From NCBI GenBank assembly GCA_045599485.1, contig JAZRWA010000024.1, forward strand, positions 1 through 15,881: a DNA stretch of 15,881 nucleotides. Reading direction: 5' to 3'. Source of the stretch: Clostridia bacterium (GTDB lineage: Bacteria > Bacillota > Clostridia > Christensenellales > Aristaeellaceae). A program made the translations under genes and the position numbers. The notes beneath the pieces are model-generated. The model was not told the origin of the DNA, did no database searches, and saw only the letters and a program-made list of their open reading frames with translations. This document shows positions 1-15,881 of this stretch, in pieces (the first letter of the stretch is position 1; every line of letters starts with the position of its first letter).

Positions 1-2876
1 TCCTTCAAAGCCGTCTCGTGCGCCAGGCGGGTCACGCTTGTCTTTTGCCGGTGATGCAGCTTTGCGGATGGGTGCATACGGCGCAAAAACTATTCGTTAA
101 AGTCAGTATCCAAGGCAGGAAGCACAACAGGATGGTCACCGGGCAGCTCTTGATGGTATTCGCTTTCATCGTGAAAACGCACGTCCCACAGGCTGCCGTT
201 GAGGGCGGTGTACAGCTGATCGCGGTTGTCGGTCAGTGCGGGCTCGATGGCCTGTCCCACCCATTCCAGCATGCTGGTGGCACAGCCGCTGGCATAATCG
301 CCGGGCGGCAGGCGCCATTTTTTGCGGGCGCTGTCCAGCGACTTGGGGCTGGCCAATAGGATAAGGCGGTCGCGGGCGCGTGTCATGGCCACATAGAGCA
401 GGCGGGCTTCCTCGGCGCGGTCCTCACGGGCGGCACGCTCGGCAATGGCACGGCCGCCCAGCGTCTGGTCGGCAACACGTTCTTCGGCATCCACCCATTT
501 GAGGGAAAGCCCCAGCTGCTGATCGATGCGCAGCGTATCGCCGCTGCGCGCGCCGCGGAAGGCTCTGGCCATTTCCATGACAAACACCACGGGGAATTCC
601 AGTCCCTTGGTTTTGTGGATGGTCATGATGCGAACCACATCGTCCTTTTCGCTCAGCTCTTTGGCGGTCGTTTTATCCGAAGAATGCAGGGCGGCCTCGG
701 AATTGCGCAGAAAATCAAACAGGGAATAGCGTGCCCCCTCATCCTGTGCCCTTTCACACAACAGGCGCAGGTTCGCCTGACGGATGCGGCCGTCCCTTTC
801 GGCCCCGGCGAGGGCGTAAATACCCGTTTCGCGCAGCAAATGGCGCAAAAGGGCGTCCACCGTCATCTGGTCGGACAGAAAACGCCATCGATCCAGTGTG
901 TCCAGCACGTGGGCGATGTCGGGCTCAGTCTCGCGCAGGGCAAAGATGCCTTCGTACAAATGGGCATATTTTGCGCAATTCTGGCTGATTTCCGCCAATC
1001 TTTCGGAAGAAAAGCCAAAGCAGGGCGTACGCAGGGCGGCAAGCAGCGGCAGATCCTGATAGGGGTTATCCAGCACGCGGATGAGGTTGACCATGTCCTC
1101 CACCTCGCGCTGCTCGTAAAAGCTGGCGTCGGCATCGCTGAAGCAGGGAATGCCCTCGTTTTGCAGGATGCGGGCAATGGTCTCACTGCGGCCGCTGGCC
1201 TGACGGACCAGCAGAACAAAATCACGCCACTGCAGCTTGCGGTTTTGATACGGCTGCCCCACCAGCTGCTTGATGCGGCGCGCCGCCTGCTGTGCCTCGT
1301 ACATCCAGCCGCGGGTCAGCTCTTCGTTTTCGGCGGAGTCCTCGGAGGGCTTTTCTTCCCCATCCTTCTTTTTGACACCACCGATGAGGTGCAATTCGAC
1401 CGCGGGGCCCATTTCAGCGTCGCTGCGGGCGTTCAGCTCGGCATCCTTGTCATAATCCAGCTCAGCACTGCGCAGCGAGGCATCGGGTGTACCGGTTTTG
1501 CGCATGGCGCGCTTGAACACGCAGTTGACGGCATCCAGTATGTTTTTGTTGGAACGGAAGTTCTGGGACAGCACGATCTTACGCTCGGTGCCGTCCGCTT
1601 CCTTGCTGAAGCTTTCGTATTTGCCCAAAAACAGCGAGGGATCGGCCTGACGGAAGCGATAAATGGATTGTTTGACATCGCCGACCATAAACAGGCGGTT
1701 GCTTTCGGTATGGATCATGCGGACGATGCCTTCTTCAATGCCGGACACGTCCTGATATTCATCCACAAAGATCGCGTCATAGGAGGCGGCGACCTCGGCA
1801 CGGACACGGTCATCCTTCAATGCTTCGATGCACAGATGCTCAAGATCGTTATAATCCATCAGACCGCGCTGACGCTTGAACGCGGCATAGCGATCGGCAT
1901 AGTTGTGCACCAGACGGCACAGGGCGTTGGCCGGGGCCACGGTATCGGCGATACGGGATGTTTCCGACGCCAGATCATAGGAGACCAGCGCTTGCGCCTT
2001 TTTGAAGCAGTCCTTGGCTTCCTCACGAAAATCGGTATAGATCTGTTTGGCGGCAGGGTCGGGGGCGTTTTTCTTGGTAGCACGGGTCAGCGTGGCAAAC
2101 TTCAGCTCCTGGATGCTGTTCATGGCGCGCACGGACGCCATTGCTTCACTGATCAGGTCAAAATCCGCTTTGCAGCTGTCGGTGTACAGGGCAAGACTTG
2201 GATGGATCGCCAGCTGCGCTTCCATCTGCTCGATATAGGCGCGCGCGCCCTCCAGCTGCATCAGCGCTTCCTTGGCAAAGATCAGCTGCAGCGAGCGGAG
2301 AGAGGCAGGGTCGGTGGACGGCTTGTGCGTGTCGAGCCATTCCCACGGCTCCGGCTGCATCATGATAAAGCCGTACAGCTTTTCCGCCATATCGACGATC
2401 TCTTCATCCTCAAACTGCGCACGCAGCAAGCGATCTTCCTCCTAAGAAGAAGCACACATCTGCTCCACGGCTTCGCTCAGGGCTCGCAGGCGCAGAGGCG
2501 CCAATTGCGGGTCGGAGCCGATGCGGGCGTTGGGGTCGGCTCCGCACGCCTGAAAGTGCGTTTTGATGACATTGTGGCAAAAGACGTGCAGGGTGCTGAT
2601 CTGCGCGCGCTTCAAGGAGCGAAGCTGCTCCCGCATATGACGGTTCTAAGCGGCTTCTGCATCCAGAGCCCGTTCCATTTTGTCACGGAGCTCGGCGGCC
2701 GCGGCGCGTGTAAAGGTAATGATGAGAAAACGGGTCACTTCGCCGCCCGCGCGCAAAAGGCGCAGCACGTGCTCGATCAATACTGTGGATTTACCGCTGC
2801 CTGCGGCCGCGCTGACCAGCGTATCGTGGTTATCCGCTTCAATGGCCTTCAGCTGATCTTCTGTCCAAACGCGCAC
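1..2876 (-). CDS. addA: AddA/RecB-type UvrD-family (SF1) ATP-dependent helicase-nuclease. The 3' end runs off the window. The frame carries three in-frame TAG codons (2646-2648, 2442-2444, 90-92).
   Basis: Track ORFs 2646..2945, 2442..2636 and 90..2429 share one minus-strand frame (2945-2636=309 and 2636-2429=207, both multiples of 3). They are separated only by single TAG codons (plus-strand cta). The frame stays open past a third TAG at 90-92 for 29 more codons to the window edge (FLRRMHPSAKLHHRQKTSVTRLAHETALK). SF1 motifs occur in order across the pieces: Walker A AAAGSGKST (piece 1); ISTLHVFC (piece 2); VDEYQD, MVGDVKQSIYRFR, QNFRS, MTIHKTKGLEFPVVF and LYVAMTRARDRL (piece 3). The layout, and the K-x-S-V-T motif after the third TAG, resemble B. 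subtilis AddA as I recall it. The likely start is GTG at 2876 (MRVWTEDQLKAI), 6 nt after GGAGGG (2883-2888). The MFHVKH extension in the track is translation of the parS palindromes. No addB-like gene lies upstream. Confidence 0.8.
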
Positions 2877-3441: not shown

Positions 3442-5940
3442 ATGAAGCAATATCATGTAACGGGGATGAGCTGTGCCGCCTGCTCCGCCCGCGTGGAAAA
3501 AGCGGTCAAGGGCGTGCCCGGGGTGACGGAATGTGCTGTCAGCCTGCTGACCAACTCCATGGGCGTGGAAGGAACCGCCTCAGACGGCGACATCATCCGT
3601 GCGGTGACGGAGGCGGGCTACGGCTGCAGCCCCAAGGACGGAGGCAGTACCGCAAAAAGCGCCGCGTCCTCCGTGGATGAACTGACCGATACCGAAACGC
3701 CGAAAATGATCCGGCGTTTGATCGCCAGCCTGTGCCTGCTGCTGCCGCTGATGTATGTTTCCATGGGCGGCATGATGTGGGGCTGGCCTGTTCCCTCCCT
3801 GTTTGCGGGCAACGGCCTTGCCGTTGGCATTTATGAAATGCTTCTGGCAGGTCTGGTCATGGTCATCAACCAGAAGTTTTTTATCAGCGGCTTCAAGGGA
3901 CTGATCCACAAAGCCCCCAACATGGATACACTGGTGGCCATGGGCTCGTTTGCCTCGTTTGCGTGGTCGGTGGTGACGCTCTTCCGCATGACGCTGCCGG
4001 GCGCGATGCCGATGCATCTGCTGCACGACCTGTATTTTGAGTCGGCGGCCATGATCCTGACCCTCATCACCGTGGGCAAAACGCTGGAAGCGCGCAGCAA
4101 GGGCAAGACGACGGACGCGCTCAAGAGCCTGATGAAGCTCTCTCCCCGCACCGCGACCCTGGAAAGGGACGGAAAACAGGTGACGGTGCCCATTGAAGAG
4201 GTGCGCCCCGGCGATATCTTTGTATTGAAGCCCGGCGACAGCGTGCCGGTGGACGGCGTGATCGTGGAGGGCAGCGGCTCCCTCAATGAAAGCGCGCTGA
4301 CGGGCGAGAGCGTGCCTGCGGACAAGACGGTGGGCGACCGTGTCAGCGCCGCCACCATCAACCTGAACGGCGCGCTGCGCTGCCGGGCCGAGCGCGTGGG
4401 TGAGGATACCACGCTGGCGCAGATCATTCGCCTCTGCTCGGATGCCGCAGCGACCAAGGCCCCCATCGCGCGGCTGGCGGACAAGGTCAGCGGTGTGTTT
4501 GTGCCCGTGGTGCTGGGCATTGCTGCGGTGACGTTTATCATATGGCTGCTGCTGGGCGAAAGCACGGGCTTTGCGCTGGCAAGAGGCATCAGCGTGCTGG
4601 TCATCTCCTGCCCCTGTGCGCTGGGCCTGGCAACGCCGGTCGCTATCATGGCGGGCAGCGGCGTGGGTGCCAGGAACGGCATTCTGTTCAAGACCGCGGC
4701 CTCGCTGGAGCGGGCGGGACGGACGCGCGTGGCGGCGCTGGACAAGACCGGCACCATCACCGAGGGCGTGATGAGCGTGACCGATGTGCTGCCCGAAAAC
4801 GGCAGCGAGGAGGCGCTTTTGAAGCTGGCGGCCTCTTTGGAGGCGCGCAGTGAGCATCCCGTGGGCCGCGCCGTTGTAAAAGAGGCCGAAAAACGCGGCA
4901 TCATGGCCGAAAGCGTGACCGATTTTGCCGCGCTGCCGGGCAAGGGACTGATGGCGCGCCACGCCGGCGGCAAGCTGGTGGGCGGCAGCGTCAGCTACAT
5001 TGCGGAAGTGACCGAGCTGCCCGGGAACGTGAAAAAACAGGCGGAAAGGCTCTCTGACGAGGGCAAAACGCCGCTGTGCTTTGCCTTGGAGGATCGCTAC
5101 ATCGGCATGATCGCTGTGCGGGATACCCTCAAGAGCGACAGCGCGGAGGCCATCAAACAGCTGAAAAACATGGGCGTGCGCGTGGTGATGATCACGGGCG
5201 ACAATGCCCGCACGGCGGCCGCCATGGCCAAAGCCGCGGGGGTGGACGAGGTGCTTTCCGGTGTGCTGCCCGACGGCAAGGAAGCCGCCGTGCGGAGCCT
5301 CAAAAAGTACGGCCCTGTCATGATGGTGGGCGACGGCATCAACGATGCCCCCGCCCTGATCAGCGCCGATGTGGGCGCCGCCATTGGCGCGGGCACCGAT
5401 GTGGCCATTGACGCCGCCGATATCGTACTGATGAAGAGCAGCCTCAGCGATGTGGCGGCGGCCATCCGCCTGTCCCGCGCGACGCTGACCAACATCCGCG
5501 AGAACCTTTTCTGGGCGTTTTTCTACAACGCGGTGTGCATTCCGCTGGCCGCCGGTGCGTTTATCCATTGGACGGGCTGGCAGATGAGCCCCATGCTGGG
5601 CGCTGCCGCCATGAGCCTTTCCAGCTTCTGCGTGGTGAGCAATGCCCTGCGCCTCAACCTGATCGATATTCATTCCCCCAGGCATGATCACCGTCTGAAG
5701 GGCAAGGCGCCTCAAACGACCGTGCTGGAGCTGGAAGTGGAGGGCATGATGTGCCACCACTGCGAGCGGGCGGTATCCGAAGCGCTGTCGGCGATCGACG
5801 GCGTGGTGGACGCCTCCGCCGATTTTGAGACCGGTAAGGTCCTGCTGACCTGCGTAAAACCCATTCCGGAGCAGGTGCTCCGCCAAGCCATAGAGGAGGC
5901 GGATTATGCCCTGCTGTCCGTAAAAGAACAGGAGAAATAA
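3442..5940 (+). CDS. copA: Copper-translocating P1B-type ATPase with N-terminal and C-terminal HMA metal-binding domains
   Basis: The 832-aa product has an N-terminal HMA domain (GMSCAACSARVE), the TGES motif (LTGESVP), the transmembrane CPC motif (SCPCALGLATP), DKTGTIT, MITGDN and VGDGINDAP. A second HMA domain sits at the C-terminus (VEGMMCHHCERAV). AAGAGG RBS. The stop is TAA. Confidence 0.95.
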   Translation: MKQYHVTGMSCAACSARVEKAVKGVPGVTECAVSLLTNSMGVEGTASDGDIIRAVTEAGYGCSPKDGGSTAKSAASSVDELTDTETPKMIRRLIASLCLLLPLMYVSMGGMMWGWPVPSLFAGNGLAVGIYEMLLAGLVMVINQKFFISGFKGLIHKAPNMDTLVAMGSFASFAWSVVTLFRMTLPGAMPMHLLHDLYFESAAMILTLITVGKTLEARSKGKTTDALKSLMKLSPRTATLERDGKQVTVPIEEVRPGDIFVLKPGDSVPVDGVIVEGSGSLNESALTGESVPADKTVGDRVSAATINLNGALRCRAERVGEDTTLAQIIRLCSDAAATKAPIARLADKVSGVFVPVVLGIAAVTFIIWLLLGESTGFALARGISVLVISCPCALGLATPVAIMAGSGVGARNGILFKTAASLERAGRTRVAALDKTGTITEGVMSVTDVLPENGSEEALLKLAASLEARSEHPVGRAVVKEAEKRGIMAESVTDFAALPGKGLMARHAGGKLVGGSVSYIAEVTELPGNVKKQAERLSDEGKTPLCFALEDRYIGMIAVRDTLKSDSAEAIKQLKNMGVRVVMITGDNARTAAAMAKAAGVDEVLSGVLPDGKEAAVRSLKKYGPVMMVGDGINDAPALISADVGAAIGAGTDVAIDAADIVLMKSSLSDVAAAIRLSRATLTNIRENLFWAFFYNAVCIPLAAGAFIHWTGWQMSPMLGAAAMSLSSFCVVSNALRLNLIDIHSPRHDHRLKGKAPQTTVLELEVEGMMCHHCERAVSEALSAIDGVVDASADFETGKVLLTCVKPIPEQVLRQAIEEADYALLSVKEQEK

Positions 5941-6711: not shown

Positions 6712-6753
6712 GGGGGAACCACGCTTTCCGAAGCCGGAAAGCATGGTTCCCCC
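6712..6753 (+). terminator. Long hairpin downstream of the DeoR-family gene; also the core of the left inverted repeat of the low-GC islet
   Basis: GGGGGAACCACGCTTTCCG (6712-6730), loop AAGC, CGGAAAGCATGGTTCCCCC (6735-6753). The stem is 19 bp with one mismatch. It is followed by TTTAACC, a second small stem CCCTT/AAGGG and then CAGTTTTTT. Confidence 0.55.
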
Positions 6754-6865: not shown

Positions 6866-7513
6866 TTAATCCCATGTTATATGCATATACTTTTCAGTTG
6901 ACTCAAGGTAACGTTTAGCTCCTATCAGATATCCCAAATCATGCAGCCGCTTTCTTTGCATTTCAGTTTGAGCGGTCATGGTATGCACAAACATCGTTTC
7001 ATCGGGGATATATAATCCTCCGTATGTTGCGATTTGCAGTATTGGCAAGTGATATTTGTCTGAATACCCAATGTATTCGCCGTAGACTTCAACCGGAATG
7101 TTTTCAAATCCGTCAAACACAGTTTGATTTTTTTCATATCCCGGATTACTTCCCACAAAGATACCGTTTTGCTTCAGAGCGTAAATAACAATCCATTCAT
7201 TATTGTTTTCGTCGGTGATGCGAAATGCAAAAAGATCATCGATTCTAAAGTACTGAGTTATGGAACCATAAATTGCAATTAACCGTTCTTCAAAACGATC
7301 GTTCCAGTTATCAAAGTAGGTTTCATAATCAACGTGCATAAATGGAATAATGCTTTCACCACGCTGGGCTTTATCGATGATTGCCTGAGCTTCTGAGGGA
7401 TTATATCCCAATGCAAGCATTTTGCCGTAATTCAACGTAACTGTGCTTTCACTGTCAGCCAAACAATTTGAGACGAGCAGAAAGCAGATGATGGTCAACA
7501 GAACTTTCTTCAT
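6866..7513 (-). CDS. Hypothetical secreted protein encoded in a low-GC islet; no family recognised
   Basis: Track ORF 6866..7528. The preferred start is the second ATG (7513, MKKVLLTIICFLLVSNCLADS), with GGAGG 8 nt upstream. The N-terminus is a typical signal peptide. Sampled 60-nt lines inside are 37-43% GC, against about 65-68% in the flanks. The stop is TAA. Confidence 0.65.
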   Translation of the reverse strand: MKKVLLTIICFLLVSNCLADSESTVTLNYGKMLALGYNPSEAQAIIDKAQRGESIIPFMHVDYETYFDNWNDRFEERLIAIYGSITQYFRIDDLFAFRITDENNNEWIVIYALKQNGIFVGSNPGYEKNQTVFDGFENIPVEVYGEYIGYSDKYHLPILQIATYGGLYIPDETMFVHTMTAQTEMQRKRLHDLGYLIGAKRYLESTEKYMHITWD

Positions 7514-7629: not shown

Positions 7630-7701
7630 GATTAAAACAGCCCTTTCTCGGGTGGGGTTTGGGGCGACCATGCTTTCAGGCTCTGAAAGCGTGGTCGCCC
7701 C
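7630..7701. repeat. Right copy of the inverted repeat flanking the low-GC islet; contains the hairpin that would terminate the EamA gene
   Basis: Hairpin GGGGCGACCATGCTTTCAG (7661-7679), loop GCT, CTGAAAGCGTGGTCGCCCC (7683-7701). It is preceded by AAAACAGCCCTTTCTCGGGTGGGGTTT. The reverse complement matches 6712-6788. Confidence 0.7.
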
Positions 7702-7712
7702 AACACAGTCCT

Positions 7713-8646: not shown

Positions 8647-9750
8647 TTACTGCATTTCGACCAGGTCGTAGGCGCGGGAGCCGAGACCGATCTTTTCGGC
8701 CTGATCCAGCACGGCGGCGCCGTCGGTATCGGGGTGCAGCATGGAAGCGTGATCGCCGGGGGTGCGCATGCCGCGGGTGTAGAGCAGGCTGTTGTGCTGG
8801 GGCATCATGCTGTTGACCTTGTCCAGCGCGGCCTGATCGATGGCGACGGGGTCGAAGGAGGCGAACATGCCCACATCCTCAATGACGGGGGTGTCGTTGA
8901 TGTTGTAGCAGTCGCAGTAGGGAGAGATGTCACAGGCGAGGGTGATATGGAAGCACTCACGGCCGCGGACCACGGCGGCGGTGTATTCGGCGATCTTGCG
9001 GGAAAGGATCTCGTTGGCGCGGTCATCCATGGGATGCACGCACTTGACGGGGCACTTTTCGATGCAGCGGCCGCAGCCGGCGCACTTGGTGGCATCGACA
9101 TAGGCGGTGCCGTTGACGGCGATGGCGCCGTGGGCGCAGAAGGTGGTGCAGGTGCCGCAGCCCACGCACTGGGAGGCATCCACCACGGGCTTTTCGCTGG
9201 CGTGCATATCCTTTTTGCCCTTGCGGCTGCCGCAGCCCATGCCCAGGTTTTTGAGCGCGCCGCCAAAGCCGGCGGCTTCGTGGAATTTGAAATGGTTGAG
9301 GGAGATGACGATATCGGCATCCATCACGGCGCGGCCGATGTAGGCATTCTGCACATACTCGCCGTTGACGGGCACGGCCACCTCGTCATCGCCCTTGAGG
9401 CCATCGGCAATAATGACATGGCAGCCGGTGGCGAAGGGGTTGAAGCCGTTCTGATAGGCGGCGGACAGGTGATCGAGCGCGTTGACACGCGGGCCGGTGT
9501 ACAGCGTGTTGCAGTCGGTCAGGAAGGGCTTGCCGCCCTTGGAGGCAATATAATCACACAGGGCACGGGAATAATTGGGGCGCAGATAGGCCAGGTTGCC
9601 GGGCTCGCCAAAGTGGGTCTTGACGGCAACAAACTTGCCCTTCATATCGATCTTGTCCAGACCGGCGGTCTTGACCAGACGGATCAGTTTTTCGGTCAGG
9701 CATTCATCGCCGGGGCAGCGGAAAGAGGTAAAAACGACCTGAGAGCTCAT
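8647..9750 (-). CDS. DUF362 domain protein with an inserted 2x[4Fe-4S] ferredoxin-type module
   Basis: The 367-aa product has a DUF362-like N-terminus (KGKFVAVKTHFGEPGN, FLTDCNTLY) and two CxxCxxCxxxC(P) clusters (CVGCGTCTTFC and CAGCGRCIEKCP). GGAGGA RBS. The stop is TAA. Confidence 0.8.
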   Translation of the reverse strand: MSSQVVFTSFRCPGDECLTEKLIRLVKTAGLDKIDMKGKFVAVKTHFGEPGNLAYLRPNYSRALCDYIASKGGKPFLTDCNTLYTGPRVNALDHLSAAYQNGFNPFATGCHVIIADGLKGDDEVAVPVNGEYVQNAYIGRAVMDADIVISLNHFKFHEAAGFGGALKNLGMGCGSRKGKKDMHASEKPVVDASQCVGCGTCTTFCAHGAIAVNGTAYVDATKCAGCGRCIEKCPVKCVHPMDDRANEILSRKIAEYTAAVVRGRECFHITLACDISPYCDCYNINDTPVIEDVGMFASFDPVAIDQAALDKVNSMMPQHNSLLYTRGMRTPGDHASMLHPDTDGAAVLDQAEKIGLGSRAYDLVEMQ

Positions 9751-9784
9751 GGCTTGTTTCCTCCATAATAGATGTTCGGCAAAG

Positions 9785-9814
9785 ATTATAGCACAGGTTG
9801 GGGTAAAATGTCAA
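9785..9814 (-). promoter_or_regulatory. Promoter of the DUF362 gene
   Basis: On the minus strand: TTGACA (9809-9814), 18 nt, TATAAT (9785-9790), with an extended -10 TGC immediately upstream. Confidence 0.55.
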
Positions 9815-9840
9815 AGAACAGGCTTTGCGCGGCCCTCTGA

Positions 9841-9877
9841 CAACAAAGAAGCGGCAGGGTTTTTGACCTTGCCGCTT
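9841..9877 (-). terminator. Probable terminator downstream of hup
   Basis: Minus-strand RNA AAGCGGCAAGG-TCAAAAA-CCCTGCCGCTT (one mismatch), followed by CTTTGTTG. Confidence 0.45.
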
Positions 9878-9895
9878 TGGAAGCGTGATGGGAGA

Positions 9896-10177
9896 TCAGT
9901 CCTTGCCGTTCAGCTTGTCGCGCAGGCTGGCGGCGGGCTTGAAGGCGATGGCGCGGGAAGCGGCAATTTCGATGGCTTCGCCGGTGGAGGGGTTGCGGCC
10001 GGTGCGGGCAGCGCGCTCCTTGACCTCAAAGGTGCCGAACTTGCTGAGGGAGACCTTGCTGCCGGCGCAGACAGACTCGGCGATCAGGTCGAAAACGGCT
10101 TCCACGGCCTCTTTGGCTTCGGTGTTATTCATGCCGGTCTTTTTGGCGACGGCGGCAAACAGATCCTGCTTGTTCAT
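9896..10177 (-). CDS. hup: HU-family nucleoid-associated DNA-binding protein
   Basis: The 93-aa product MNKQDLFAAVAKKTG...FGTFEVKERAARTGRNPSTGEAIEIAASRAIAFKPAASLRDKL is a textbook HU/IHF fold sequence. GGAGGT RBS. The stop is TGA. Confidence 0.95.
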   Translation of the reverse strand: MNKQDLFAAVAKKTGMNNTEAKEAVEAVFDLIAESVCAGSKVSLSKFGTFEVKERAARTGRNPSTGEAIEIAASRAIAFKPAASLRDKLNGKD

Positions 10178-10241
10178 GGGGATACCTCCGAATAATGTAA
10201 TCGCCCGGGTGGGGCGTAGTCAGCCTTATCAAGTATACATA

Positions 10242-11531
10242 TTAATTTTCGCTTGTCAAGGCTTTTTCTGTTTCTTCTGTCCGCGAAACAAGGACAGTTA
10301 CGGCGCGCTGCAGCTCTTCCTCGGCGGACTTTCCCTCGCGGCGCAGACGGTCGACCAGCAGCAGAAGCTCCTTTTGCGGGTTGTTTTCAACAAGGTCGGC
10401 GATGTTGTCGCCGTGCGCCTGAAGCTTTTTGAGCACCTTCTCCGCCCGGAGCAGAGCGGGCAGCGACAGCGACACGGCGCGCAGCGTATCGGCAAAGCCG
10501 GCGGTGCCGCGCTCCCGCTGCTTGACCTTTTCCCAGTTGAGAAGGACCTCGTCGGCGGTGCCGCAATGCACATCGCCGAAGATGTGCTCGTGACGACGTA
10601 CCATTTTGCTGACGATGCCGCTGGTGACGTCGGACAGCTCAAAGGTGCCGTACTGCGCCCCGATATCGGACTGGAACACGATCTGCAGCAGCACATCGCC
10701 CAGCTCGTCCGCCACGTGCTCCCAATCCCGCTCACTGACCGCCTGCGAGACCTCGTAGGCTTCCTCAATCAGATAGCGGGAAAGCGTGTCATGCGTCTGC
10801 TCCCGGTCCCACGGGCAGCCGTTTTGCCCCCGCAGCAGCGCCATTACACGCACCAGATCGTAAAAATCATGGCGTTCGCGCGCCTGCACCGGGGCGGGCG
10901 GCAGGTAGAGCGCGGCGGTGTGGTCGTACTTCTTTTGACGGTCCATCTCCCACAGGGGGATGCGCACGGCTTCACGGTGCGCCCGGGACGTGGGCGGGAA
11001 GAACAACACCTCGGTCTCATCGCCGTACCACGGGGTGAGCTTCAGCTTGCATTCGCCCGCCAGATAGGGCGTGTTGAGCTCGGTGATGAGGAGCCCTCCC
11101 TGTGTGTCGGTCACCTCCAGATCGGTGGCGCTGACCACACGCATGGCCCCGCGCGCCTGCGCCGCCTGCAGCAGCGGCGCGGAAACGGGCATGCCGCCTT
11201 CGATGATGATATCGCCGGGGTGCTTTTCGCACAGCGCCTGCACGGTGGTGTCGGTCAGGGCATCCAGCACGGCATACACGGCCTTGCCGCGGGCAGCGGC
11301 CTTTTCGACGGCAGCCACGGCGGCGGCGGTGAATTCGTCAAAATCCTACGCGGACTCGTGCAGGGCATCCAGAGAGGTAAAGGCAATGCCCTGTTCGGCA
11401 AGGTACTTGCCCGCGTCGGTCAGCGCGGTGCGCAGCACCAGGCGTTTGGCGGTTTTGAGGGTATCGAGCACGCCCAGGGTGAGGTGCTCACGCGGGCCGG
11501 GGCCCAGGGAAACGACGGTCACGGAATGCAT
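10242..11531 (-). CDS. yabN: YabN-like fusion protein (N-terminal tetrapyrrole-methylase-family SAM methyltransferase domain plus MazG NTP pyrophosphohydrolase domain); contains one in-frame TAG at 11346-11348
   Basis: Track ORFs 11346..11648 (real start ATG 11531, MHSVTVVSLGPGP, RBS GAGGAGG) and 10242..11318 are in the same frame (11348-11318=30). They are joined by TAG plus 9 sense codons (...LDALHESA-TAG-DFDEFTAAAVAAVEK...). The MazG core is present downstream (GCPWDREQTH, EEAYEV, ELGDVLLQIV, RRHEHIFG). The gene order flippase-yabN-hup matches the yabM-yabN neighbourhood of Bacillus and Clostridia. The final stop is TAA. Confidence 0.85.
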
Positions 11532-13606: not shown

Positions 13607-14194
13607 TTATAGGCTGTGATGCGGGAAAAGAGCTTCGTAATCCTTCCTCAGGATGGCAAACAGATACACATCGCGGTACTGTCCCTTGCTGTAGACGCGG
13701 CCGCGCAGCAGCCCCTCCCGGGTCATGCCGCATTTTTCCATCACACGGCCGGAGGCGGGGTTGCGGGGATCGTGCATGGCTTCCACCCGGTTGAGACGCA
13801 GCTCTTCAAAGCTGAAGCGCAGCAGCGCGCCGAGCGCTTCGGTGGCGTAGCCGCGGTTCCATACATCCCGGGCGAGGGAATAGCCGATCTCGGCACAGTG
13901 GCTGTCGCAGTCGATGCAGCTGAAGCTGACGGTGCCAAGGACGCGGTGATCCTCCTTGCGCTCAATGGCCAGGCTGCCGGGCAGCCCCAAACGGTACTGG
14001 CGCCTGAGGCGGCGGATGTAAGCGCGCGTTTCGGCGGGCGAGGCGTGCGCCTTGAGCGGTTCAAAGCGGCTGACCTACGGATCGCCGTAGCAGCGGAACA
14101 GATCGCGGCTGTCCTGCATCGTGACGGGGCGCAGCACCAGCCGCGGCGTCTCGACCTCGGGCAGCAGGCGAAAAACACGTCGGTAATCCTGCAT
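13607..14194 (-). CDS. RimJ/RimL-like GNAT N-acetyltransferase with one in-frame TAG at 14075-14077 (codon 40)
   Basis: Hand translation from ATG 14194 (RBS AGAGG) gives MQDYRRVFRLLPEVETPRLVLRPVTMQDSRDLFRCYGDP-TAG-VSRFEPLKAHASPAETRAYIRRLRRQYRLGLPGSLAIERKEDHRVLG.... This runs in frame into track ORF 13607..13990 (14194-14077=117 and 14194-13990=204). The N-terminal piece is the canonical first strand and helix of Acetyltransf_3-type GNATs. The acetyl-CoA motif WNRGYATEA lies after the TAG. The final stop is TAA. Confidence 0.8.
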
Positions 14195-14991: not shown

Positions 14992-15044
14992 TGTAGGAGT
15001 TTTTTACCTGAAAATTCCCGCTTTCCAAAGGAGGCTTTAGGAGT

Positions 15045-15881
15045 ATGAAAAAACATTTTGCCGCTTCCCTGACGGCGCTGGTGACGGCGCTGCTGCTGGT
15101 GCTTGGCTGCACAGGCGCTTTGGCGGCCAATGGGGTGCCGGAGGTGCTGTTTTCGCTGACCTGGAACGAAAACGGCGTGATGATGCAGTCTGACGCTGCG
15201 CCGCTGGCGGACAGCCCGGACAGCTACTGGCTGTATGTGCCGCAGGGCGCGCTTCAGAACGACGCGACCCTTTCGGTGTATGACACCACGGGGCGTTATG
15301 CCTATTTTTCACTGGCAAACGGCACGCCGCTTTCGGCCGTTGGCTATCTGGATGCCGGCAGCCAGGCAAACGGCAACGCCCTGCCGGTGCTGGCGTATGA
15401 CGCCTCCTATCAGCTGATCGGGCAGTTGAACCTGTACATTTCCACTGTGACCGATGCGCCGCTGCCGCCCGCGCAGCCCGATACCACGGTGATGGTGTAT
15501 TATGTCGATCAGAACTATAACAGCATCGCTTCGCCCACCACGGTGAATGTGCCTTACGGTCAGACCGTGACGGTAACGCCCTCCGCGTGGGACATTCCCG
15601 CGGGCTACACCCTGCAGGGCAGCAGCCAGCAGAATGCCAGCTACACGGACAGCGCGATCTATTTTGTGTACGCCGCCCCGCAGAACACAATGGTGACGGT
15701 GTACTATGTCGATCAGAACTACAACAGCATCGCGACCCCGACCACCATTGAGGTGCCGTACGGACAGACGGTGACCGTCACGCCCTCCGCGTGGGACATT
15801 CCCACGGGCTACACCCTGCAGGGCAGCAGCCAGCAGAATGCCAGCTACACGGACAGCGCGATCTATTTTGTGTACGCCGCG
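15045..15881 (+). CDS. Secreted, possibly lipid-anchored surface protein with MucBP-like tandem repeats; 3' end off window
   Basis: This ORF is not in the supplied track because it has no stop inside the window; it was hand-translated from ATG 15045 (GGAGG upstream). The product begins MKKHFAASLTALVTALLLVLGCTGALAANG..., a signal peptide with a lipobox-like VLGC. Later it has two 68-aa repeats, V(Y)YVDQNYNSIA.PTT..VPYGQTVTVTPSAWDIP.GYTLQGSSQQNASYTDSAIYFVYAA, resembling MucBP adhesin domains. The frame is open for 279 codons to the window end. Confidence 0.75.
   Translation, partial: MKKHFAASLTALVTALLLVLGCTGALAANGVPEVLFSLTWNENGVMMQSDAAPLADSPDSYWLYVPQGALQNDATLSVYDTTGRYAYFSLANGTPLSAVGYLDAGSQANGNALPVLAYDASYQLIGQLNLYISTVTDAPLPPAQPDTTVMVYYVDQNYNSIASPTTVNVPYGQTVTVTPSAWDIPAGYTLQGSSQQNASYTDSAIYFVYAAPQNTMVTVYYVDQNYNSIATPTTIEVPYGQTVTVTPSAWDIPTGYTLQGSSQQNASYTDSAIYFVYAA
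15486..15881 (+). repeat. 204-bp in-frame tandem repeat (unit 1 is 15486-15689; unit 2 is 15690-15881 and is cut by the window end)
   Basis: TATGTCGATCAGAACT recurs at 15501 and 15705, giving a 204-nt period. The distal 102 nt of the units (15576-15677 vs 15780-15881) differ at only 2 positions. The proximal ~90 nt differ at many positions. Confidence 0.85.

Follow-up and report, generated by a model that had tools for sequence, protein, structure and literature searches.

The window, i.e., the whole 15,881-nucleotide stretch of DNA that was analysed, belongs to an uncultured gut Clostridia lineage that consists of at least two species-level groups, that of the window's MAG and a second one including GCA_024404275.1 (JAKSQG01). 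One end of the window is occupied by the 5′ part of addA, which starts with a GTG codon at positions 2876-2874, preceded by the ribosome-binding site GGAGGG at 2888-2883. The features relevant to this work are as follows.

1 to 2876, minus strand: addA (helicase-nuclease AddA), 5′ 958 codons, cut by the contig end; relatives have 1160 codons and a TGA end
2646 to 2648, minus strand: in-frame TAG 1, addA codon 77, numbered from the GTG start
2442 to 2444, minus strand: in-frame TAG 2, addA codon 145, numbered from the GTG start
90 to 92, minus strand: in-frame TAG 3, addA codon 929, common to all four of the four lineage sequences covering this codon
2892-2907 and 2929-2944, unstranded: two perfect parS sites just upstream of the addA start
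10242 to 11531, minus strand: yabN-type gene (TP_methylase-like N-terminal domain and MazG) with one TAG at 11346-11348, codon 62
13607 to 14194, minus strand: GNAT gene (Acetyltransf_3) with one TAG at 14075-14077, codon 40

Between positions 2948 and 1 of the minus strand, the helicase frame contains three stops only, all of them TAG, and no frameshift. Open reading frame calling with code 11 reproduced the fragments of 99, 64 and 779 aa of the original prediction, except that the 99-aa fragment begins at an upstream ATG; counted from the GTG, the first segment of addA has 76 codons. Translation also yielded the expected 29 open codons past TAG 3 to the window edge, and the helicase motifs follow each other across the stops in the order first noted, with Walker A (AAAGSGKST) before TAG 1, ISTLHVFC between TAG 1 and TAG 2, and DEYQD...TIHKTKGLEF...VAMTRAR between TAG 2 and TAG 3. 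Upstream of the gene, the predicted parS-containing region was found, with two perfect sites (TGTTTCACGTGAAACA) where none is expected by chance. These sites are context and have no part in recoding. As had been noted, no addB gene lies upstream, and the divergent neighbours of addA are csoR and copA. No addB adjoins addA in the lineage loci either, and the locus of a sister MAG (L014) is likewise without a large ORF at that place, so the absence of addB beside addA is not special. An Rfam search of the window and of the related locus L083 gave no matches.

The related loci L001, L083 and L086 extend beyond the point at which the window is cut. In them the frame runs on for approximately 200 more codons, through the PD-(D/E)XK domain that had been anticipated, to a TGA stop at codon 1161. 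The Pfam family PDDEXK_1 matches residues 987-1145 of the relatives (GVIDLCF...DYKTD), in the same frame and beyond the window, and addA also has matches to UvrD-helicase and UvrD_C. The read-through AddA of L001 scored 733.7 bits against the NCBIfam equivalog TIGR02785 (addA_Gpos), above its cut-off of 707.65, and the match covers residues 4-1152 of the protein and positions 2-1232 of the 1234 of the profile. Among the matches listed in a scan of the GTDB species representatives for AddA there was no member of the lineage, the best of those matches being 51% identical.

We compared addA of the window with that of L001. The two are 92% identical in amino acids and 87% in DNA, with no indels in 958 codons. 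Their overall dN/dS is 0.068 at a dS of approximately 0.6, indicating strongly purifying rather than relaxed selection, and the five addA segments between TAGs gave values of 0.009, 0.091, 0.072, 0.044 and 0.14. AddA orthologues align across all TAGs. Frame, selection and homology thus uphold the initial argument that nonsense codons of the TAG type only, without any indel, do not look like pseudogene decay. Pseudogene decay, genes whose pieces are translated separately, or errors of sequencing and assembly would account for the fragments that code 11 calls and that NCBI annotates likewise. We nevertheless hold this group of explanations to be very unlikely. Decay is at odds with a dN/dS of 0.07 on either side of the TAGs, with the lack of indels and with stops that are TAG but never TAA or TGA, and it leaves the Glu-specific pattern described below without explanation. 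As for split genes, the breaks fall inside single domains, and past the TAGs no start signals were noted. An artefact of sequencing or assembly was ruled out, as the same TAGs are found in NCBI, ENA and Logan assemblies of different samples.

The original prediction had dealt with recoding as a property of addA only, which proved too narrow, since yabN, GNAT, prmC and spoVB-like genes have in-frame TAGs as well. In the yabN-type protein, the TP_methylase match (residues 4-87) spans TAG codon 62. This TAG is common to the window and to L089, L090 and L091, and the 61-aa N-terminal fragment to which it gives rise was found again in seven of eight cluster members. Similarly, the Pfam match of the GNAT protein (residues 18-158) runs across TAG codon 40. 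In related strains, prmC and the spoVB-like gene carry in-frame TAGs at codons 202 and 98, respectively. In the NCBI annotation such genes appear as fragments, i.e., MCQ2453943.1 (928 aa), MCQ2453939.1 with MCQ2453938.1, and MCQ2454235.1.

Across the lineage we found in-frame stops at 10 columns, a small number drawn from approximately 8,000 distinct codons and located within two chromosomal neighbourhoods. All 10 are TAG, with no TAA or TGA, which excludes chance as their source. The TAGs at addA 929 and 1082, yabN 62 and prmC 202 recur in a MAG at NCBI and in ENA and Logan assemblies, which are independent and come from different samples. The source samples bear the accessions SRR27361835, ERR6929691 and ERZ27247129. 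The lineage loci contain copA, csoR, yabN, a spoVB-like gene, prmC, glgCD, parS and a cluster of DnaA boxes, and this gene content ruled out a phage or mobile origin.

What residue stands at these columns can be judged from related strains, from homologues and from sister genomes. Seven TAG columns vary between strains, and the alternative is Glu in five of them (addA 818, GAG; addA 959, GAA; GNAT 40, GAG; prmC 202, GAA; spoVB-like 98, GAG), Ser in one and Leu in one. Among the sense codons a single step away from TAG, GAG accounts for only 23%, giving a binomial P of approximately 0.008 for five of seven. The GAG at GNAT codon 40 is found in L089 and L091. The Ser and Leu alternatives are those of addA 77 (TCG) and addA 145 (TTG) in the species-B strains L001 and L086; both are variable positions and say nothing on the residue. 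Indeed, their homologue columns are mixed (G 30, Q 19 and E 15 at addA 77; D 44, T 33, S 13 and E 7 at addA 145). At the other columns the homologues favour Glu, with 118 of 119 sequences at prmC 202, 100 of 115 at addA 818, 76 of 119 at GNAT 40, inside a conserved D-P-E-V motif, and 70 of 141 at yabN 62, where D follows with 27. In the nearest sister free of TAGs (JGI sample 3300020112, loci L092 and L093), 8 of the 10 TAG columns are occupied by Glu. At addA 929 the nearest sister P0002 has Glu (FNEEFGQRMH, for FNE*FLRRMH), and sister S has E at yabN 62.

Column log-odds summed over nine TAG columns amounted to +17.3 bits for Glu, -0.7 for Gln and -5.6 for Asp, with all other residues at -7.5 bits or below. 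The second rank of Gln deserves attention, as UAG reassigned naturally in phages and eukaryotes usually comes to mean Gln (PMC8629427), and as spoVB-like codon 98 is CAG in the window but GAG or TAG in other strains. TAG might thus be translated as a residue other than Glu or as a mixture, either as Gln (code 15) or by near-cognate read-through with Gln, Tyr, Lys or Trp after loss of RF1. This is unlikely in our estimation. Gln lies 18 bits below Glu, so that the TAG columns do not align to Gln as table 15 would have it, and it is absent from the 119 PrmC homologues at position 202. Within the lineage, TAG alternates with Glu in five columns and with Gln in a single one, where Glu occurs too; exchange with Gln is scarce even though a transition turns CAG into TAG and CAG is hardly less frequent than GAG. 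Pyrrolysine, used genome-wide for TAG as in some archaea, would have a precedent in what bioRxiv 10.64898/2026.05.24.727570, citing Kivenson et al. 2025, gives as the sole prokaryotic UAG reassignment on record. We give this reading hardly any credence, because the columns are specifically Glu, near-invariant in PrmC, with Lys at -14.2 bits, and because GAG or GAA takes the place of TAG from one strain to another.

If TAG is read as an amino acid, genes should not end with it, and none of approximately 25 real genes of the lineage does. All end in TAA, the main terminator, or TGA. A single ORF call ending in TAG, other than gene fragments, overlies the DnaA-box cluster and was rejected as spurious. 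In so small a sample, the lack of TAG-ended genes is not significant alone because the sisters also seldom use TAG stops (approximately 7 of 90 by heuristic calls, and 1 of 16 and 0 of 12 among called genes).

TAG is rare, at 5 of 4,356 codons, and a G directly follows it in 7 of the 11 occurrences looked at; apart from this frequent G, the surroundings of these 11 TAGs share no RNA signal. Rarity and the next base would both suit a dual meaning of TAG, whereby RF1 is retained while an efficient natural amber suppressor brings about partial or context-limited read-through. Against it, the context common to the TAGs is limited to that one base, and none of the genes seen terminates with TAG. 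Moreover, the TAGs have been kept over a dS of 0.6 within catalytic domains of essential-type genes with a dN/dS of approximately 0.07, so that efficient decoding is needed. A dual meaning is therefore improbable in our view.

We thus favour the reading that TAG is a rare sense codon for glutamate in this lineage, for which the sequence comparisons make a strong case. They consist of in-frame TAGs in five or more unrelated genes of housekeeping type, strong purifying selection on either side of them, exchange of TAG with GAG or GAA in close strains, homologue columns occupied by Glu, and no credible gene ending in TAG. With TAG read as Glu, addA is one intact gene of 1160 codons.

Decoding of TAG would involve a tRNA with the anticodon CUA charged with Glu. 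It may most plausibly have arisen from a duplicated tRNA-Glu(CUC) or, alternatively, from tRNA-Gln(CUG) charged by a non-discriminating GluRS and escaping amidation. ARAGORN found no tRNA genes in any lineage locus, approximately 60 kb altogether, and hence no tRNA(CUA) there. In the JGI metagenomes, a collection from which the lineage seems absent, a 23-mer of a Glu-type CUA anticodon arm had no matches, and a 17-mer of the CUA anticodon arm had 52 matches, none of which is a tRNA. RF1, the release factor concerned, is probably missing or no longer active on UAG. The gene order is uninformative in this respect, for prfA does not adjoin prmC in the lineage (L083) and the sister MAG loci L087 and L088 lack it there as well. 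Codon capture would be the likely route to reassignment, since genes of the surrounding clade already seldom end in TAG. Taking these elements together, we think it probable, on comparative grounds, that the lineage uses an undescribed bacterial code in which UAG would mean Glu genome-wide, UAA and UGA would be the sole terminators, a Glu-accepting tRNA(CUA) would be present and RF1 would be lost.

Bacteria with UGA reassigned to Trp or Gly include Mycoplasmatales, insect endosymbionts, Eggerthellaceae MAGs and Absconditabacteria/Gracilibacteria. Their codes (tables 4 and 25) resemble the case proposed here in the lineage-wide change of a stop to a sense codon, the fragments that result from table 11 and the residue-specific columns. 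They differ from it in that the codon here is UAG and the residue Glu, that RF1 rather than RF2 is expected to be dispensable, and that the genomes, at 59-60% GC, are neither AT-rich nor visibly reduced. Gut phages that read UAG as Gln (table 15; crAss-like and Lak) share the habitat, the use of UAG as sense and the splitting of genes under table 11, whereas the DNA here is chromosomal and of housekeeping type and the residue is Glu, not Gln. Engineered RF1-free Escherichia coli (C321.deltaA and related) resembles the proposed case in that UAG no longer terminates and is available to a suppressor tRNA, but it is man-made and its TAGs were removed by design; the lineage would be its natural counterpart, with new TAGs accumulating.

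Peritrich ciliates use table 30 and Blastocrithidia nonstop table 31. These UAR-to-Glu eukaryotic nuclear codes have the same outcome for UAG (PMC12153298), but they rely on eRF1-based termination and have UAA reassigned too, the main terminator here being TAA. The pyrrolysine archaea (after Kivenson et al. 2025, cited in bioRxiv 10.64898/2026.05.24.727570) are prokaryotes that have lost UAG as a stop genome-wide and, as that citation has it, with so small a drop in coding density that standard pipelines miss the change; the code proposed here would share these features. Theirs is a dedicated non-canonical amino acid with the pyl machinery, while the columns here point to canonical Glu. In PMC8629427, PMC13462651 and bioRxiv 10.64898/2026.05.24.727570, every bacterial stop reassignment described concerns UGA, and a new meaning of UAG is limited to phages and eukaryotes and, with pyrrolysine, to some archaea. 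Our literature search found neither a report of UAG being reassigned in bacteria nor a paper that cites these accessions. The code proposed here, if true, would be without natural precedent for UAG in bacterial chromosomes and for a stop-to-Glu code in prokaryotes.

GenBank at present splits the affected genes into fragments and "hypothetical proteins" (e.g., MCQ2453938.1, MCQ2453939.1 and MCQ2454235.1), and, given the rarity of TAG, the change would escape code predictors that go by coding density. Under the proposed code, the change would have been caught early, with TAG making up approximately 2% of Glu codons and still swapping with GAG and GAA between strains. With TAG seldom a stop even in the sisters, it would be a recent instance in which codon capture could be weighed against the ambiguous-intermediate model. 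A natural Glu-tRNA(CUA), perhaps in a natural RF1-free background, would be of use to synthetic biology. In the gut, a habitat with many TAG-recoded phages, the change would also bear on barriers to phages and gene transfer. Finally, it would mean that a free-living, GC-rich gut bacterium can abandon RF1-dependent termination in nature without genome reduction.

All three stops in the helicase frame of addA, read from 2948 to 1, are TAG codons, as had been predicted. Codons are numbered from the GTG start.

2876 to 1, off the window edge, minus strand: addA (helicase-nuclease), a 958-codon open frame
2876-2874, minus strand: likely GTG start of addA, with GGAGGG just 5'
2646-2648, minus strand: TAG 1, addA codon 77
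2442-2444, minus strand: TAG 2, addA codon 145
90-92, minus strand: TAG 3, addA codon 929

ORF calling under code 11 reproduced the fragments of 99, 64 and 779 aa, and translation placed the SF1 helicase motifs in them where they had been claimed to lie.

The closest relative found, P0001, is the addA protein on Logan contig L001, from a second species-level group of the same lineage (92% protein identity). The two genes (~87% DNA identity, dS 0.6) align codon for codon, with 0 indels in 958 codons. Their dN/dS is 0.068 overall and low in every inter-TAG segment (codons 1-76, 0.009; 78-144, 0.091; 146-817, 0.072; 819-928, 0.044; 930-958, 0.14). Past the window end, the frame in L001 and two other related contigs (L083, L086) encodes a PD-(D/E)XK domain (GVIDLCF...DYKTD) and then reaches TGA at codon 1161. 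Read-through translation of L001 addA gave a protein that scored 733.7 bits over its full length, above the NCBIfam AddA equivalog cut-off of 707.65, and matched Pfam UvrD-helicase, UvrD_C and PDDEXK_1. The sequence comparisons support an addA that is intact and under selection, not a pseudogene, as the original prediction had suspected. Checks of frame, nuclease domain and selection, which it had set as possible refutations, came out in its favour.

The predicted parS region upstream of addA contains two perfect sites (TGTTTCACGTGAAACA; 2892-2907 and 2929-2944), 37 bp apart start to start and directly 5' of the GTG. The promoter-proximal site, 2892-2907, ends 16 bp from that codon. The reported lack of an upstream addB also held, the divergent neighbours being csoR and copA. 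No addB adjoins addA in the lineage loci or at the sister MAG locus L014; the absence is apparently clade-wide rather than peculiar to the window locus. On L083, a 330-bp stretch (3850-4182) inside an AT-rich 1.1-kb non-coding gap contains 14 DnaA boxes, of which six are perfect (TTATCCACA), ~2.5 kb past the addA end, after DUF1385 and prmC genes; ~1 match would be expected by chance over the whole 9.7-kb contig. Taken with the pair of parS sites, the stretch resembles a replication-origin region or DnaA-box cluster. It has no adjacent dnaA, and the 186-aa ORF call that overlaps it is spurious.

In-frame TAGs were also found in other genes and strains. L001 addA has Ser (TCG) and Leu (TTG) at the sites of TAG 1 and TAG 2, shares TAG 3, and has extra TAGs at codons 818, 959 and 1082. 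TAG is codon 202 of prmC in five related contigs and codon 98 of a spoVB-like gene in related contigs. Two more genes of the window are affected:

10242-11531: yabN/mazG, with TAG at 11346-11348, within the TP_methylase-like domain
13607-14194: GNAT gene, with TAG at 14075-14077

The lineage was sampled through the window's NCBI contig, the NCBI MAG GCA_024404275.1, and ENA and Logan assemblies from several samples. This recurrence supports in-frame TAG as a feature of the lineage's genetic code, beyond addA alone. The addA dN/dS, the lack of indels, and the TAGs recurring across genes and assemblies all contradict an explanation by decay, gene splitting or artefact. PGAP annotation of GCA_024404275.1 under table 11 gives AddA as the 928-aa MCQ2453943.1, with the remainder of the frame called as separate ORFs in L086, the contig from that MAG, splits PrmC into the 201-aa MCQ2453939.1 and the 72-aa "hypothetical" MCQ2453938.1, and leaves the YabN N-terminus as the 61-aa "hypothetical" MCQ2454235.1.

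The lineage has ten TAG columns, three of them TAG in every covering strain and seven variable.

Residues at the TAG columns (siblings; nearest sister; homologues)
addA 77: TCG (Ser); Ser; G 30, Q 19, E 15
addA 145: TTG (Leu); Asp; D 44, T 33, S 13, E 7
addA 818: GAG (Glu); Glu; E 100/115
addA 929: all TAG; Glu; R 31, D 22, L 14, E 6
addA 959: GAA (Glu); Pro; E 31, K 22, G 16
addA 1082: all TAG; Glu; G 50, E 21, Q 13
prmC 202: GAA (Glu); Glu; E 118/119
yabN 62: all TAG; Glu; E 70/141
GNAT 40: GAG (Glu); Glu; E 76/119
spoVB-like 98: GAG (Glu), window CAG (Gln); Glu; no homologue set

In the nearest TAG-free relative, 8 of these 10 sites encode Glu. In the genes studied, GAG, from which TAG arises by a transversion, accounts for only 23% of the sense codons that a single mutation would turn into TAG; given this share, a Glu alternative at five or more of the seven variable columns has a binomial P of ~0.008. 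GAA, two steps from TAG, is the alternative at two Glu columns, as synonymous drift among GAA, GAG and TAG would predict. Codetta-style log-odds summed over nine columns (112 to 141 homologues each) gave Glu +17.3 bits, Gln -0.7, Asp -5.6 and others at most -7.5. TAG is very likely a sense codon in this lineage, and it probably means Glu, the sole residue compatible with these comparisons. Gln, or mixed near-cognate read-through, is unlikely, as Gln lies 18 bits below Glu and finds no support at PrmC 202. Pyrrolysine is highly improbable, being at odds with the Glu-specific columns and with the exchange of TAG for GAG and GAA.

The real genes of the window end in TAA (10) or TGA (3) and never in TAG, a test of terminator usage that draws on a small gene sample. 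TAG-ended ORF calls in related loci are all internal gene fragments, except one over the DnaA-box cluster, rejected as a spurious call. A dual meaning of TAG with RF1 kept is doubtful, since it fits poorly with TAGs persisting inside catalytic domains. In the surrounding clade TAG ends ~7/90 genes by heuristic calls, and 1/16 and 0/12 called genes, the last being the nearest sister (JGI 3300020112), whose 12 genes have no TAG in frame or as stop. TAA is strongly favoured there despite a GC content of 55-60%, and of 50-62% across the sister loci sampled (L002, L003, L005, L007, L014, L087, L088, L092, L093).

Glu decoding of TAG would involve a tRNA that has a CUA anticodon and carries Glu. Gln-tRNA in Clostridia is generally produced by way of a non-discriminating GluRS and GatCAB, so that CUA variants of tRNA-Glu(CUC) and of tRNA-Gln(CUG) could each end up loaded with Glu. 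Efficient decoding across a dS of 0.6 suggests that RF1 would be lost or ineffective. We consider this tRNA and RF1 mechanism somewhat likely. No lineage locus contains a tRNA gene; pattern scans of JGI metagenomes, from which the lineage is seemingly absent, found no Glu-type CUA anticodon arm; and gene order around prmC is uninformative on prfA/RF1. As TAG is rare (5 of 4,356 codons, versus 265 GAG plus GAA) and polymorphic among strains, the reassignment looks young.

Other features were noted in the window and related contigs. GC-rich palindromic repeats of ~40 bp, similar to REP or terminator elements, recur 3' of gene ends (GGGGAACCACGCTTTCCG...CGGAAAGCATGGTTCCCC, plus a GGGGCGACCATGCTTTCAG variant) and are break points of several short-read contigs.

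Window 6713-6752 and ~7640-7705; L083 3302-3347 and 5503-5582; L089 (another related contig) 8788-8852 and 9038-9077: palindromic repeats
Window 6866-7513, minus strand: 215-aa lipoprotein-like ORF, with signal peptide, no Pfam match, in a 44% GC island
Window 15042-15881, off the end, plus strand: secreted repeat protein with signal peptide

The lipoprotein-like ORF is missing from the second species group, in which deoR adjoins eamA (L089), and so is probably a recent insertion. Between DUF362 and yabN (9751-10241) the window has an HU gene alone (9896-10177); in the corresponding interval (L089 5720-6691) related strains additionally have a His_Phos_1 phosphatase gene. The secreted protein carries near-identical tandem repeats of ~65-70 aa (MVYYVDQNYNSIA..PYGQTVTVTPSAWDIP.GYTLQGSSQQNASYTDSAIYFVYAA) and is probably a cell-surface adhesin.

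According to PMC8629427 and PMC13462651, known bacterial stop reassignments concern UGA in every case, and bioRxiv 10.64898/2026.05.24.727570 gives UAG-to-Pyl, in archaea, as the only genome-wide UAG change in prokaryotes. Nowhere in the literature searched was UAG described as reassigned in a bacterium. Gut phages are known to read UAG as Gln, whereas Glu is proposed here; UAR-to-Glu is known from a few eukaryotes. Four of seven listed features of stop-codon reassignment were found, the other three being terminator usage, with its small sample, and the molecular hallmarks tRNA and RF1. Judged from sequence, the lineage's case works like stop-codon reassignment. The route would be codon capture, with which the TAA preference and scarce TAG stops of the clade fit, and this scarcity in the wider clade may have prepared the ground for the capture of TAG.
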